The notes below the pieces were generated by a model that saw only the letters and a program-made list of their open reading frames with translations, ran no database searches and was not told the DNA's origin. A stretch of 32,000 bases of DNA from Methylophaga frappieri (GTDB lineage: Bacteria; Pseudomonadota; Gammaproteobacteria; Nitrosococcales; Methylophagaceae): assembly GCF_000260965.1 (NCBI RefSeq), contig NC_017856.1:2280001-2312000 (forward strand), read 5' to 3'. Positions within the stretch are counted from its first letter, which is position 1; the number at the start of each line of letters is the position of its first letter. Positions 1 through 22,287 of the stretch are shown here, piece after piece. The position numbers and the translations under genes were made by a program.

Positions 1-177
1 CATGGTACGACCTTAATCATTATTTCTCATAAAAAAGGCATTTTGGGTCAGCTGGATAACCTGTTGATGATGCGTGATGGTTATCAAGTGGCTTATGGTT
101 CGAAAGAAGATGTGATGAAGCATATCCAGCAAAGTACGCAAGCAATCAAAAATACTGCAACAACGGCCCAATCATGA
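1..177 (+). CDS. Type I secretion system ABC transporter (ATPase/permease), C-terminal fragment; the gene starts upstream of the window
   Basis: Frame 1 is open from base 1 to TGA at 175-177. It translates to HGTTLIIISHKKGILGQLDNLLMMRDGYQVAYGSKEDVMKHIQQ..., typical of the region after the D-loop/H-loop (IISH) of PrtD/AprD-type exporters. The stop overlaps the ATG of the HlyD-family gene (ATGA). Confidence 0.7.
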   Translation, partial: HGTTLIIISHKKGILGQLDNLLMMRDGYQVAYGSKEDVMKHIQQSTQAIKNTATTAQS

Positions 178-1523
178 AAGATATAACTGAATTTAACAGC
201 GACGCGACGCGGGCTAAAGCGGAGCAGTCCCAATCGTCACTTTCTGTTTCAGACCGGCCTTACCGTTGGTTCGGTGTCTTGGTGTTGTTGCTGACATTTG
301 GGATTTTTGGCGGTTGGGCTTATACCGCCAAAATAGACAATGCGTCACTAGCGCCGGGCTTTGTCAGTGTTAAATACAATAGTAAATCAGTACAGCATTT
401 GGATGGTGGCATCGTGACAGAGCTGAACGTCCGTGAAGGTGATCTGGTCGAAGCGGGAGACGTGCTGATTGTATTGGATGATACACAAATTCGAGCTCAG
501 CGCGATATTACGATGGGACAACTATTGTCTTTGAGTGCTTTGGAGTCGCGTCTCATTGCAGAGCAAACCTGGCAGGAAAAAGTTGATTATCCCGAGTTGT
601 TGCAAGTCGCTGATGATCCGCGGGCGGCCGAAGCCATGATGGTTGAAAATGAAATTTTCAAGGCACGTCGAGAATCCATGACTGGTGAAGTCAAAGTGCT
701 GGAACAACGTATTCAACAATTACGTAATCGGCGCGTGGGTCTGGAAGCGCAACGTGACAGTAATGAAAGGCTGACCAAGTCCCTGACCGAGGAAATCGAT
801 GAGTTGCGTGATCTGCTCAAAGAAGGATTCGCTGAAAAACAACGTCTGCGCGAGCGCGAGCGTCAGTTTAATGAGGCGGAAGGATCTATTGGCGAATTGA
901 CTGCCGAGATTGCGGCCCTTGATGTTCAGATTGGTGAAACCCGACTGGAAATTCTGCAATTGCGTAAAGAACGCAGTGAAGAAGTTGCCACCCGGTTGGC
1001 AGAAGTTCAAAACAGTCTCTTTGATGTCCGTGAAAAACTGACTGCTCAGGAAGATGTATTGAGAAAAACCCAGATTCTAGCACCGGTCACAGGCAAAGTG
1101 CTGGGCTTGGCTGTCCATACAATTGGTGGGGTTATCGGGCCGAGAGAACGAATCATGGAAATTGTGCCTGAAGACGAAGAGTTAGCCATTATTGCTAGAG
1201 TGAATCCGATAGATATTGACCGTGTGTCGGTTGGTCAGTCAGCCGAAGTCCGGTTCAGCGCTTTCCACTTTGGTACGACACCACGCATGTTTGCAGAAGT
1301 GGTTAAAGTATCGCCAGATCGGATTCAAGATAGAGACAGTAAGGAGGTTTATTACGAAGCCCGTCTGGAAGTGACAACCGAGAGTTTGCTGGAGATGAAT
1401 AATTTGGTCGTTTTACCGGGTATGCCGGCCGAGGTGTTGATTTCATCCGGTGAGCGCACTCTCTTTGAATATCTGTCCAAACCGGTGACCGATGCCTTCT
1501 CCCGTGCTTTTTTAGAAGAATAG
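174..1523 (+). CDS. HlyD-family type I secretion membrane fusion (periplasmic adaptor) protein
   Basis: 449 aa. It has one N-terminal TM segment (WFGVLVLLLTFGIFGGWAY), a lipoyl-like VQHLDGGIV..L.V.EGD.V..GDVLI.LD motif, a long E/Q/R-rich coiled coil, and a C-terminal beta-barrel ending in LPGMPAEV. The ABC-MFP-OMP gene order matches PrtDEF/AprDEF/RsaDE. Confidence 0.9.
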   Translation: MKDITEFNSDATRAKAEQSQSSLSVSDRPYRWFGVLVLLLTFGIFGGWAYTAKIDNASLAPGFVSVKYNSKSVQHLDGGIVTELNVREGDLVEAGDVLIVLDDTQIRAQRDITMGQLLSLSALESRLIAEQTWQEKVDYPELLQVADDPRAAEAMMVENEIFKARRESMTGEVKVLEQRIQQLRNRRVGLEAQRDSNERLTKSLTEEIDELRDLLKEGFAEKQRLRERERQFNEAEGSIGELTAEIAALDVQIGETRLEILQLRKERSEEVATRLAEVQNSLFDVREKLTAQEDVLRKTQILAPVTGKVLGLAVHTIGGVIGPRERIMEIVPEDEELAIIARVNPIDIDRVSVGQSAEVRFSAFHFGTTPRMFAEVVKVSPDRIQDRDSKEVYYEARLEVTTESLLEMNNLVVLPGMPAEVLISSGERTLFEYLSKPVTDAFSRAFLEE

Positions 1524-1535
1524 CGAGCCTAGACT

Positions 1536-18686: not shown

Positions 18687-21600
18687 ATGGCTTTATCACA
18701 AACGCAAGTATCTGAGCTTTACGTCGCGATTTTTAATCGTGCATCGGAAGGCGAAGGTAATGCCTTTTGGCAGACCTTTTCTGCCACAGATGATGTGTCA
18801 GAAGTTGCCAACATCATGCTGGGCACCACCGCTGCGCAAGACTACTTTGGCAGTGCATTAGATAATGACCAGGATTTTGTTGAGTGGATTTACCAAAACA
18901 CATTCAATAAAACCATTGCTGACGATCCAGACGGTATCGCTTTCTGGGTTCAAGAATTAGCGGATAATGGCGGCGACCGTGGTGCGGTTGTCGAAGCGAT
19001 TATTTTCGCGGCTAAGCAACCTGAAAATGCCGGTCCTGCACAAGACCAGTTTTTAAACCGGGTTGCTGTGTCTAACTACGCAGCACAAAATCTGGATGAA
19101 GCACCTGCTGATCTGGGCTCACTGCGTTTTGATGACGAGCTGATGGTATCAGACGACGATGCCACCGTAACTGCGGCACAAGATTCAATTGATGATCTGG
19201 CTGATGAAGAGCCTGTTGATCCAGGTGTGCCGGGTGATGAATTCCTGCTGACGTCAGGTACCGATCGTTTTACTGGTACAGCCAATAACGACTTCTTTGA
19301 TGCGCCAATCATGCAAAACCCATTTGCGGGTGGTGTATCTAACTCACTGTCAACGGCTGACCGTTTAGACGGTGGTGCGGGTACCGACACGTTGTATGCT
19401 GAGTTGGTTTCTGAATTTGTTGGTACCGACACCAGCACTATCACCGATGTTCAACCACGTACAACCAGCATTGAAATCGCTGAATTTGAAGCGTTGGATA
19501 TGTCTGGCGAAGGTGAAAATACCGTTGTTGTTGATGCGTCTAAAATGCTGGGCGTTCAAAAAATCGGTTCTGCCTACTCAGACGGTGACTTGGTTATCGA
19601 AAACCTGACGACACTGGCTAACGATGGTTCGACCATCCGCAACACGTCAGAAATGACCATCACCATGGATCACACTGACAACTTTAACTCTGATGAAGAT
19701 GCATCAGACCTGACAGTTTTCTTTGATGAAGATTATCTGGTAACAGGTCAGCAAACCTCAGGTGCGCAGTTATTGGTACGTTTGGTTAACGCGGTAGAAA
19801 ACGAAGCCGGCCGTAACTCAGTTGAAAAATTCAACAACATCGAGTTTGCCGTTGGTGAAACAGTGGTAACCGTTGATATCTCAGCGATTGCTGCTGATGA
19901 CACACTGGATTACACCACTGTTTACCAAGCGATCGTTGATGCGATTAATGCCCAGCTGGATGCCGACGGTTTCTCTGACGTATCTGCTGCCTTGGCGCCG
20001 GTTGAAAATGCGGTATTCTCAATCCCGGTTGCTGGCTTCCAAGCAGGCGACCCTGCAGGTCCCTTACTTCCCGATCATCATTTCAAATGACGGTCCAGAG
20101 CCATTGACTGGCGTATCGATTGATACAGCAGAAGATGCCAGCGACACTGACTTGAACAACTCGTTCTCGACATTTGATCCAACCACTGAAATCACACCGA
20201 TTTCGGTTGATGTTGAGCTGCACAAAGTCGGTCAGGACGGTGACGGTGGTAACCTAATCATTGGTGGTAAAGATCAAGACTCTATTGATGATGATGTTGA
20301 CCAAAACGACGGTATTGAAGTATTCAATATCGAAGTATTGGGTAACGAAGATCGTCCATCGAACCTGGGTTACATCACATCAACCAATGGTGCGCTGCGT
20401 ACCGTTAACATTGATTCAGAAACCCGTACAGATGATTCTTACGCGGCGCTGACTGTGCGTGGTTTATTGTCAAATGAACTGCAAGGTCAAAGTGCGTCTG
20501 CACCATTTGGCGGTACACTGACGAACCTGAATGCCAACACCTTCTTTGGTGATTTGTACATCGGTACCGTTTTTGCGGCACAGAACATTGATACGTTCAG
20601 CGCAACGGGTGGCGGCGATGTGTTCTACAACGCAGAGAAAGATGATAACGGCGTATACACTTCAACCGTGACTGGTGCGGGTAGCGATACCATCATCTAT
20701 GACATTGACGGTGACTCAGTCGATACCATTGGTGAAGGCTTTATGGTCTCTACCGGTGCGAACGGTGATTCAATCGAAGTCACACTGGATAGCGGCGTAT
20801 CCCAATCCACCATGTATCTGCTGGATAATCTGGATATCAGCACCGGCAGTGGTGATGATTATGTCTTCGTCGGTGGTATTGCCAACGTTGATGTGATGGC
20901 GGGCAGCGGCAGTGATTTCGTTGAAATCGATACTGCGGGTGTAAGCGGTGTAACAGGTGGCAGCACAGGCACGTGGGAATTTGGTGATATCACTGGCCCA
21001 CAAACCTTCGGTGATGCCTTCGGTCTGCAAGGTGGCGGTCGTGTCTTGTATCAAGCGCAACTGACGGCCATGTTTGCCGGCTTTGAAAGCACCGTTACTG
21101 TTGAAACCACTGCGGCCAACAACTATGTTGCCACGCAAATCGATATCAACAATGCGATTGCTGATGCGATTAGCAACAATCCAGAGTTAGCGCGTCTGCT
21201 GGGTATTGACATGGATGAAGGTGCACAAGGTATCGATGTGAATTCATTGGTGAGAGGTGAAAATCACTTGGCAATCAGCCTGTATCAACCGGCCTTAGTC
21301 GCGGGTCCTGGCCCAGCGACAGGTGAAGTTGTTGTAACAAGCGACAGCGTGTTGAATGCGATTGCTCAAGGTCTGATTGATACTGAACAACAAGTAGATT
21401 CAACTAATCTAGATTCTGCTGGCGATATCCGTGCTGCCTTTAATGGTGATGCGGGTTCAATTGTTGCCGATGGTACGGGTTCAGGCGCTGTTATGCTGGG
21501 TACTAATGAACGTGGTGTTTACGATTATCAGAATCCAATTACTGGTGGTTCTACTGATATCGCTGGTGGGCCAAGTACGCGGAACTACAGTGAAATCGAT

Positions 21601-22287
21601 ATGGGTACCGGTACGAATGACTTGCTGGTTCTGGACTCAAATGATGAGAGTGCCAATACGCTGGTGATCAGTGATACTTTCGGTAAAGTATCGGTAGTCA
21701 ATTTCTTCGATGGTGCCTTCACTTACGATGCTAATTCAGTTGGTTCAGACTATGCTGATGTGGGTGTGCACCGTTTGGACTTCACCGCGTTTTTGACTAA
21801 CACATCAGATTCGTCAGCGAATACGCCGAATGATTTGTCAGAAGTGCGTATTGATACCACGCTGGATGCGGTCACTGACCTGGGTGCCAATGAAGTGGCG
21901 ATCATCAACTTTGCTACCGTTGATAACTATGACAGTACATTAGGTGACCAAAACTTCAGTTCACTGACCGGTTCACAATTGCTGTCACTGTTCAATGAAG
22001 CTGGTGATGCGGCATCTGAAGGTGCGAAAACTGATCAGGTAGGTGATACGAACCAATCTATCGTACTGGTTGAAAACAACCTGAACTCGGGTGAATACAA
22101 AGTATTCAGCGTCCAGTCTGACGTAGACAACGCTGGTACCGATGGCTTCACCGGTGCGACCTTGCTGGGAACCATTGACTTTGGTTACAGCCTGGAAGGT
22201 GGTAACACTGAACTGGGCAACATCAACCTGACTGGTTCAGCGGAGTCAACAACAGACTTTGAAGATATCTTTGGCTTAACGCCATGA
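18687..22287 (+). pseudogene. Second surface-protein paralog, reading frame broken by a 1-nt insertion (CC to CCC at 20061-20063); 1199 aa if repaired
   Basis: ORF 18687..20090 equals residues 1-457 of copy 1 (with T4S) and then runs into TGA. Homology continues in the +1 frame (ORF 19873..22287, homologous from ~20064). It has its own AGGAG RBS and terminator. The last 371 aa are homologous to copy 1 but clearly diverged. Confidence 0.8.
18705..21171 (+). repeat. Direct repeat copy B (2467 bp) of the surface-protein 5' block
   Basis: See copy A. The offset is 3942 bp before the extra C and 3943 bp after it. Confidence 0.9.

Follow-up and report, generated by a model that had tools for sequence, protein, structure and literature searches.

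A candidate S-layer-type coat protein encoded beside type I secretion and D-rhamnan-type glycan genes in Methylophaga frappieri

The window analysed here is a stretch of 32,000 nucleotides from Methylophaga frappieri JAM7 (NC_017856.1, positions 2,280,001 to 2,312,000 of the forward strand; assembly GCF_000260965.1). Its relevant genes, all on the + strand, comprise the end of a type I secretion system (T1SS), a Wzm/Wzt glycan cluster and a tandem pair of genes for very large acidic proteins, of which the first (gene 1, AFJ03438.1) is intact. On balance, we favour the reading that gene 1 encodes a T1SS-exported, highly expressed surface-layer (S-layer)-type coat protein, tethered by a DUF4214 module to the methylated/acylated deoxyhexose polymer from the adjoining Wzm/Wzt pathway. 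The first-pass annotation of this DNA had proposed an S-layer of an undescribed type. The protein belongs to a widespread family without prior study. The word 'undescribed' needs qualifying: GenBank already calls a 467-aa fragment of gene 2 an 'S-layer protein', and a preprint on the protein Psh, discussed below, partly anticipates the concept.

The gene 1 protein and its expression signals

The gene 1 product has the Cys-free, acidic and biased composition that had been noted at first reading: 1235 aa (~129 kDa, pI ~4.05) with 0 Cys, 11.1% D, 10.8% G, 10.0% T and 6.7% N (38.6% together), and 2.7% K+R. The lack of a signal peptide was also confirmed, as the N-terminus (MALTQTQVSELYVAIF...) shows no basic or hydrophobic signal pattern and is a confidently folded helix in the structural model. 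One canonical nonapeptide, GGAGTDTLY, lies at residues 229-237, and five GxGxD motifs were counted in all, four of them isolated besides the nonapeptide, in agreement with the degenerate motifs described before. Pfam places DUF4214 (PF13946) at residues 60-106 with 26.7 bits against a cut-off of 23.2, so that the suspected DUF4214-like N-terminus holds. No NCBIfam model matches the protein or its family. The deposited annotation is 'type I secretion target repeat protein'.

AlphaFold models were built with a 55-sequence alignment in two overlapping parts (residues 1-560 and 501-1235). The first part, with a pLDDT of 89.7, has a helical domain at residues 1-175 followed by beta structure. The second reached a pLDDT of 82.2 and a pTM of 0.87.

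Codon usage sets gene 1 apart from its surroundings. Its effective codon number (Nc) is 38.2, compared with 48-55 for its neighbours, gmd (41.5) excepted; 86% of its Arg codons are CGT, 74% of its Gly codons GGT and 58% of its Leu codons CTG, and there are zero ATA, AGA, AGG, CGA and CCC codons. This pattern is classic for a very highly expressed gene and, as judged from codon usage, indicates that gene 1 is one. High expression had earlier been argued from a long leader and strong terminators. The terminators are real, a hairpin with a U-run following each gene (listed below), and the codon bias agrees with them. The putative leader amounts so far to a 539-nt intergenic gap before gene 1, in which a consensus scan found no sigma-70-like promoter. 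An Rfam scan of the window, this gap included, returned zero matches.

Secretion and glycan genes

The features that carry the argument are the following.

1..173, + strand: 3' end (last 57 codons) of the ABC transporter gene of the T1SS; frame-1 translation ending ...TTAQS*, the gene's remainder lying outside the window
174..1523, + strand: HlyD-family T1SS periplasmic adaptor (TIGR01843 377 bits, cut-off 208.65; Pfam HlyD_3)
1536..2843, + strand: TolC-family T1SS outer-membrane channel (TIGR01844 266.8 bits, cut-off 225.15; Pfam OEP E 1.7e-64)
2847..3956, + strand: GT4 glycosyltransferase (Glycos_transf_1 E 2e-34; Glyco_transf_4 E 7.5e-17)
3960..5036, + strand: GDP-mannose 4,6-dehydratase, gmd copy 1 (TIGR01472 465.6 bits, cut-off 415)
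5108..5893, + strand: Wzm, ABC-2 permease for polysaccharide export (ABC2_membrane E 4.7e-20)
5890..7119, + strand: Wzt ATPase with C-terminal carbohydrate-binding domain (Wzt_C E 2.8e-38; ABC_tran E 5e-23)
7172..8347, + strand: GT4-like glycosyltransferase (Glyco_trans_4_4 E 1.3e-9)
8344..10086, + strand: GT1-family glycosyltransferase with additional N- and C-terminal regions (Glycos_transf_1 E 6.7e-24)
10086..11060, + strand: membrane acyltransferase Acyl_transf_3 (PF01757 E 3e-20)
11212..12288, + strand: gmd copy 2, its translation differing from copy 1 by one amino acid
12285..13130, + strand: Rmd-like GDP-4-keto-6-deoxy-D-mannose reductase (PDB sequence matches)
13213..14205, + strand: S-adenosylmethionine (SAM) methyltransferase with a C-terminal coiled-coil-like tail (Methyltransf_23/11/25; PDB 3dli 1.7e-28)
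14745..18452, + strand: gene 1, candidate surface-layer protein, intact copy, 1235 aa, AFJ03438.1 (Pfam DUF4214, composition, codon usage, AlphaFold model)
18505..18541, + strand: intrinsic terminator 3' of gene 1 (hairpin -23.9 kcal/mol, z -5.3, then a U7 run)
18687..22287, + strand: gene 2, frameshifted second copy (extra C at 20059-20061 relative to gene 1)
22300..22380, + strand: double hairpin and U-run terminator 3' of gene 2 (-43.5 kcal/mol, z -6.1)

The T1SS genes do run into the Wzm/Wzt cluster with a gap of 3 nt, between the tolC stop and the first glycosyltransferase gene (2847), as the first-pass annotation had claimed. HlyD and TolC of the window both exceed the curated NCBIfam cut-offs. 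The last 57 residues of the ABC protein align with the C-terminal ends of ABC proteins of the PrtD type that are encoded in related loci (the L numbers used below; E 2e-6 to 4e-4). Those proteins, ~590-630 aa when called from the first start codon, score 621-760 bits with TIGR01842 against a cut-off of 510. The TIGR01842 match was placed 44-95 aa from their N-termini, and in individual loci 14-20 aa from the N-terminus (L005 and L007) or as late as residue 121 (L033, profile position 83); stretches of this length would probably leave no room for a C39 domain. The PrtD-type ABC class serves RsaA and SapA. With adaptor and channel above curated cut-offs and PrtD-type ABC counterparts in related loci, these matches identify the genes as a T1SS.

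In the glycan cluster, Pfam, NCBIfam or PDB matches bear out Wzm and Wzt with Wzt_C, a set of three glycosyltransferases, the acyltransferase Acyl_transf_3, Gmd, the Rmd-like reductase and the methyltransferase. Among them are the parts looked for in an ABC-dependent D-rhamnan-type pathway, namely Gmd, an Rmd-type reductase and Wzm/Wzt with the cap-binding Wzt_C. In the PDB, the reductase matches best an unnamed 'putative epimerase' (4lw8, 5e-63); among named entries the top matches are GDP-6-deoxy-D-mannose reductase (6x3b, 6e-30) and Rmd (2pk3, 2e-21), and all named epimerases rank lower. A D-rhamnan-type polymer dependent on an ABC transporter can therefore reasonably be proposed from the Gmd, Wzt_C and Rmd-type matches. 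Gmd and the Rmd-like reductase would yield GDP-D-rhamnose, the sugar and its methyl cap being predicted from the genes, and the methyltransferase at 13213-14205 is a candidate glycan-capping enzyme.

The closest known parallel to this pathway is the common polysaccharide antigen of Pseudomonas aeruginosa, a D-rhamnan, with which it shares Gmd and Rmd, Wzm/Wzt and GT4 glycosyltransferases. The P. aeruginosa cluster also has methyltransferase and acyltransferase genes that match the extra ones of the window. Unlike the P. aeruginosa cluster, that of the window has a duplicated gmd and is joined to a T1SS and a coat-protein gene, and its polymer is predicted from the genes.

The gmd duplication is a 1153-bp direct repeat (3886-5038 and 11138-12290), 98.96% identical and gap-free. 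The two copies, 7.25 kb apart, flank the block of wzm, wzt, two glycosyltransferase genes and the acyltransferase gene. The repeats could let this block be excised or amplified by recombination, or they may mark a recent insertion.

The protein family, its gene neighbourhoods and gene 2

A search of 5.8 billion proteins, of which 8000 candidates were scored, found at least 355 significant relatives of the gene 1 protein among those candidates, typically ~40% identical across ~96% of the length. When the body alone (residues 181-1235) was compared by exhaustive phmmer with 1.84 billion cluster representatives, its family came to 490 clusters (50% identity) at E<=1e-3 and 223 at E<=1e-30. Relatives occur in Gammaproteobacteria (Marinomonas, Halomonas, Marinobacterium, Oceanospirillum, Marinobacter, Halorhodospira, Ectothiorhodospira, Lamprobacter), Alphaproteobacteria (Marivita, Sulfitobacter), Betaproteobacteria (metagenome-assembled genomes, MAGs), Campylobacterota (Poseidonibacter, Halarcobacter) and Desulfobacterota (Desulfobacter, Desulfobacula, Desulfuromonas); every one is recorded as a hypothetical, a DUF4214 or a 'beta strand repeat' protein. 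The composition of the gene 1 protein is shared: 112 of the 117 long members examined (96%) are Cys-free, all are strongly acidic, with a median K+R of 2.7%. In some relatives, cadherin, Big or RTX domains are added.

Many family members have a different N-terminus on the same body. Conversely, the N-module of the window type, at ~50% identity, is also found on ~295-aa proteins (P0124-P0189), some of them with PKD domains, a distribution that fits a portable anchor. These ~295-aa proteins stand in other contexts, for example adjoining a type II secretion system (T2SS) cluster or further DUF4214 proteins (L046, L048).

A genome scan recovered 43 related loci, and the 35 of at least 12 kb were used for the counts. 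A homologue of any glycan gene of the window was present in 28 of the 35, and one of Wzm, Wzt or the methyltransferase in 20. The HlyD adaptor has homologues (33-44% identity) in 13 loci and SapC, which is encoded further downstream in the window, in 8; one or the other was found in 19. This linkage spans Gamma-, Alpha- and Betaproteobacteria, Campylobacterota and Desulfobacterota, and the Campylobacterota loci L007 and L010 have their SapC, ABC and HlyD genes in that order, as in Campylobacter fetus sapCDE.

Methyltransferase homologues (35-43% identity) occur in 14 of the 35 loci, and only in those with the window-type N-terminus. When only loci with 7 kb or more of upstream DNA were compared, a homologue was present in 13 of the 23 loci with the window-type DUF4214 N-terminus versus 0 of 10 with other N-termini (Fisher p 0.002 in a test that ignores phylogeny). 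The positives include Desulfobacterium, Halomonas, Poseidonibacter, one MAG from the Gammaproteobacteria and several genera of the Roseobacter group. The window-type N-module thus co-varies with a neighbouring methyltransferase.

The claim of two genes for ~1200-aa proteins was right for gene 1, which is intact, but gene 2 is broken by one extra C at 20059-20061 (GGTCCCTTAC in gene 2 versus GGTCCTTAC in gene 1). The frameshift splits it into open reading frames (ORFs) at 18687-20090 and 19873-22287, and GenBank holds it as two fragments, the 467-aa AFJ03439.1 (18687-20090, the 'S-layer protein' mentioned above) and a 727-aa 3' fragment. With the extra C removed, gene 2 would encode 1199 aa. 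The two copies had been described as sharing an invariant N-terminal part. They do share the DUF4214 N-terminus, but the near-identity runs on through residues 1-828: the 5' 2485 nt of gene 2 are 99.76% identical to gene 1, and nt 19-2484 of both genes (residues ~7-828) differ, apart from the extra C, by a single substitution. Over the final ~400 residues amino acid identity falls abruptly to 46-65%, and because of this drop after nt 2484 the boundary looks like that of a gene-conversion tract. Of the six substitutions that separate the genes over their first 2.5 kb, four sit in the first 18 nt (14750-14762 versus 18692-18704), a cluster that marks the 5' edge of the putative tract. Upstream, the two genes have just ~12 nt in common, around the ribosome-binding site, and gene 2 sits behind the terminator of gene 1 with just 234 nt of upstream sequence of its own.

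Gene 2 may be a decayed or silent variant cassette that gene conversion keeps similar to gene 1. The frameshift may be that of a real pseudogene, or a sequencing or assembly error within the 2.5-kb repeat; phase variation is an unlikely cause because the run is only CCC. Several related loci (L006, L019, L010, L013, L027) have at least two paralogues or additional ORFs of the N-module only, and Marinomonas gallaica has copies of 1915 aa and 1193 aa in one locus.

Downstream of the tandem pair, the window continues as follows.

22445..24391, + strand: TPR and GT41 (O-GlcNAc-transferase-like) protein (Glyco_transf_41 E 1.7e-90)
24594..25184, + strand: YceI (Pfam/NCBIfam)
25776..26447, + strand: 2-oxoglutarate (2OG)-Fe(II) oxygenase (Pfam/NCBIfam)
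26478..27305, + strand: SapC-family protein (PF07277 E 1.7e-59)
27368..28522, + strand: GT1 glycosyltransferase (Pfam/NCBIfam)
28558..29766, + strand: trypsin/Calx-beta protein (Pfam/NCBIfam)
29961..32000, + strand: start of the gene of a LapA-like giant adhesin, continuing past the window end (retention module NF033682 E 9e-28; T1SS-143 repeat E 3e-22)

The SapC-family gene is linked with T1SS genes, as in the SapA-type systems of C. fetus, and the oxygenase gene immediately precedes it (25776-27305 for the pair). The TPR-GT41 gene stands directly 3' of the coat genes and occupies the same position in Marivita geojedonensis (L005, 14000-15730); none of the other 34 loci of at least 12 kb has a homologue. 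Its product may glycosylate the coat protein, possibly as an accessory gene. At 28558-29766 a trypsin-like serine protease without an obvious signal peptide is fused to Calx-beta; it could be another T1SS substrate, or a protease that processes the coat or the adhesin. The LapA-like adhesin, with an (EPTP)n linker encoded by a 12/24-nt tandem repeat at 30459-30698, is a second likely T1SS substrate in the neighbourhood.

Proposed function, related systems and alternatives

As we picture it, the locus would be a self-contained module that builds a protein coat on the outer membrane of M. frappieri. The gene 1 protein would be exported unfolded through the T1SS by means of a C-terminal signal and would fold outside the cell, probably with Ca2+, as the several xGxGxD turns and a weak match to a Ca2+-bound beta-helix suggest. 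Its N-terminal helical module of ~175 residues (DUF4214, phycobilisome-linker-like) would bind the methylated/acylated deoxyhexose polymer and so hold the protein on the cell, and the beta-rich body (residues ~190-1235) would make up the coat, which would most likely be a regular S-layer. The steps that we infer from the genes are export, Ca2+-dependent folding, binding to the glycan and assembly into a lattice.

The arrangement has counterparts among known S-layer systems. Like Caulobacter RsaA with RsaDEF, it would combine a PrtD-type T1SS with an acidic, Cys-free substrate of ~100-130 kDa that has no signal peptide, a proposed N-terminal glycan anchor and a beta-rich body. GDP-mannose-derived sugar genes adjoin the secretion genes in Caulobacter, as they do in the window. 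The gene 1 protein differs in having no sequence similarity to RsaA, a DUF4214/phycobilisome-linker-like helical bundle as N-domain and no RTX block, and the glycan of the window differs from that of Caulobacter in being of the Gmd/Rmd type, Wzm/Wzt-exported and accompanied by a methyltransferase. Compared by gene layout, the locus resembles C. fetus SapA/SapB and sapCDEF in its SapC-family gene and in paralogues with a conserved 5' part and a differing 3' part. The conserved part of SapA is ~180 residues. Here, by contrast, it is 828 residues, and there are two tandem copies, one of them frameshifted, instead of a cassette array with an invertible promoter.

A further comparison is with the 'hauberk' S-layer proteins of methanotrophs (MEALZ_0971, EQU24_15540 and M. 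album H8GFV3), which also come from gammaproteobacterial C1-utilisers. Their S-layer gene, very large and highly expressed, has all three T1SS genes upstream of it; an adapted strain that lost the layer has a frameshift in this gene, and homologues have been reported in Halomonas, Marinobacterium, Desulfonatronum and a Roseobacter-group strain. The T1SS linkage and the taxon range are similar, but the hauberk proteins are larger (genes >5 kb, 4036 aa in M. album), bear RTX domains and have BLAST-detectable similarity to RsaA. No methanotroph S-layer protein was among the top matches of our searches (including that with the Halomonas relative P0024) or among ten named long relatives. Slr4 of Pseudoalteromonas tunicata and NpdA of Paracidovorax citrulli are recently recognised, widespread Gram-negative S-layer families that were found through their abundance and a linked secretion system. 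We rejected both as the family in question: they are ~52-59 kDa, have a Sec signal peptide and are T2SS-linked, versus 129 kDa, no signal and T1SS linkage here. No paper on an S-layer in Methylophaga was found.

Several results weigh against the S-layer-type coat protein that we favour. By Pfam, the gene 1 protein has no match to HemolysinCabind (PF00353) at E<=0.01 and no tandem RTX block, and is not an RTX protein. A PDB sequence search, with the protein and with a 35-sequence profile, returned nothing significant and hence no sequence homology to RsaA or another solved structure; RsaA was not matched at E<=1 (protein) or E<=10 (profile), the phycobilisome (PBS) linkers that appeared were not significant, and one marginal profile match, across the TGxGxD turns, was to the Ca2+-bound beta-helix of a Marinomonas antifreeze protein (E 0.018). 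Foldseek found no match in the PDB at E<=1e-3 for either model. Judged by these sequence and Foldseek searches, which gave no significant solved relative, the fold of the body has no homologue among solved structures. In Foldseek, its beta region weakly matched FliD D2-D3 and the C-terminal domain of RsaA (E 6e-3 to 1.5e-2; for RsaA 6p5t, E 6e-3 to 0.27, TM 0.11-0.16, probability up to 1.0). These are the sole S-layer-like structural hint, and we take the resemblance to RsaA as a lead and not as a result. The weak matches of the N-terminal domain were to PBS-linker domains, as expected for DUF4214, and not to the lipopolysaccharide (LPS)-binding domain of RsaA.

The gene context is open to similar objections. 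The T1SS of the window, whose ABC N-terminus lies outside it, could serve the adjacent trypsin/Calx-beta protein or another substrate. SapC has no function that we know of. The pairing of SapC with a 2OG-oxygenase is also found in unrelated TonB-receptor loci, so that SapC alone argues only weakly for an S-layer. The synteny counts are inflated because several of the genomes are from Marivita and others of the Roseobacter group, and the literature yielded no electron microscopy, proteomics, secretion or binding data for the protein or any family member.

The main rival explanation is a surface shield without a crystalline S-layer, that is, a T1SS-exported, O-polysaccharide-bound coat, irregular or aggregated, that masks receptors from phages or predators. 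Its model is Psh (PP_1794) of Pseudomonas putida KT2440, described in a preprint of September 2026 (bioRxiv 10.64898/2026.09.02.748959). Psh is a fusion of RTX and DUF4214 domains, and its gene has O-antigen genes on one side and a T1SS on the other. Repair of the T1SS ATPase gene allows its export, upon which Psh blocks sixteen phages at the cell surface; its binding to O-antigen was modelled only. The same gene-neighbourhood rule, a DUF4214 protein by T1SS and O-antigen genes, is reported there for Gammaproteobacteria. Psh is the sole functionally studied T1SS-exported DUF4214 protein that we found, and its authors report surface masking and a 'large aggregate' but no lattice. The window likewise encodes a DUF4214 protein beside T1SS and O-antigen-type glycan genes, and our synteny and anchoring evidence fits a non-lattice shield equally well. 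Compared by description, however, Psh carries DUF4214 at its C-terminus and has an RTX block, whereas the gene 1 protein has DUF4214 at its N-terminus and a large non-RTX body. Size (~129 kDa), a compact single body (pTM 0.87), extreme codon optimisation and conservation over the full length are typical of lattice-forming S-layer proteins, and on these grounds we hold the shield to be unlikely.

A secreted Ca2+-dependent adhesin or biofilm-matrix protein, for which the nearby glycan genes would be a general envelope neighbourhood and not a means of anchoring, would account for an acidic, Cys-free T1SS-type substrate, for the LapA-like gene 7.7 kb downstream of gene 2 and for the cadherin, Big or RTX add-ons of some relatives. 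Yet by Pfam and NCBIfam the gene 1 protein lacks a retention module (the one at 29961 is part of another gene), tandem Ig-like repeats and a processing context of the LapG type. The ABC proteins associated with family members are of the PrtD type, not of the type with a C39-like domain that serves LapA-class adhesins. Homologous glycan genes are also linked to the family in several phyla, and the type of N-terminus varies together with the methyltransferase; an adhesin seems to us quite improbable. A third alternative is that gene 1 encodes a secreted lipase, protease, peroxidase or glycanase with a DUF4214 targeting domain. Fusions of DUF4214 to peroxidases and peptidases do exist, and an anchored lipase was suggested in the study of a Halomonas DUF4214 protein. 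Against this, Pfam and NCBIfam showed no catalytic domain in the protein, no enzyme was among its PDB sequence or fold matches, and extreme codon bias with Cys-free acidity better suits a structural protein; we give an enzyme very little credence.

A bolder form of the S-layer-type coat reading can be put forward tentatively, and we ourselves doubt it more than we believe it. The locus would then be the type locus of an unrecognised, multi-phylum S-layer family with a novel body fold, in which an exchangeable DUF4214 module reads a methyl-capped Wzm/Wzt polysaccharide, anchor and glycan co-evolve, and, in M. frappieri, two tandem cassettes are kept identical by gene conversion over 2.5 kb while the C-terminal third can vary.

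If the gene 1 protein is such a coat, a widespread S-layer or coat family with a new fold would be present in marine Gamma- and Alphaproteobacteria, purple sulfur bacteria, relatives of Arcobacter and sulfate reducers, and DUF4214 would gain a concrete role as a modular polysaccharide-binding anchor. The co-variation of anchor type and methyltransferase provides a directly testable rule for which glycan each anchor reads. Costly coats are often lost in laboratory evolution. Among lines of a subseafloor Halomonas that evolved in rich medium, 7 of 8 had inactivated a DUF4214 protein of 1038 aa. The anchor role would tie this repeated loss together with RsaA-style LPS anchoring and the P. putida Psh phage shield. 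S-layer proteins secreted by a T1SS are useful as display and secretion scaffolds, and coats of this kind govern phage and predator access and the surface chemistry of abundant marine bacteria.

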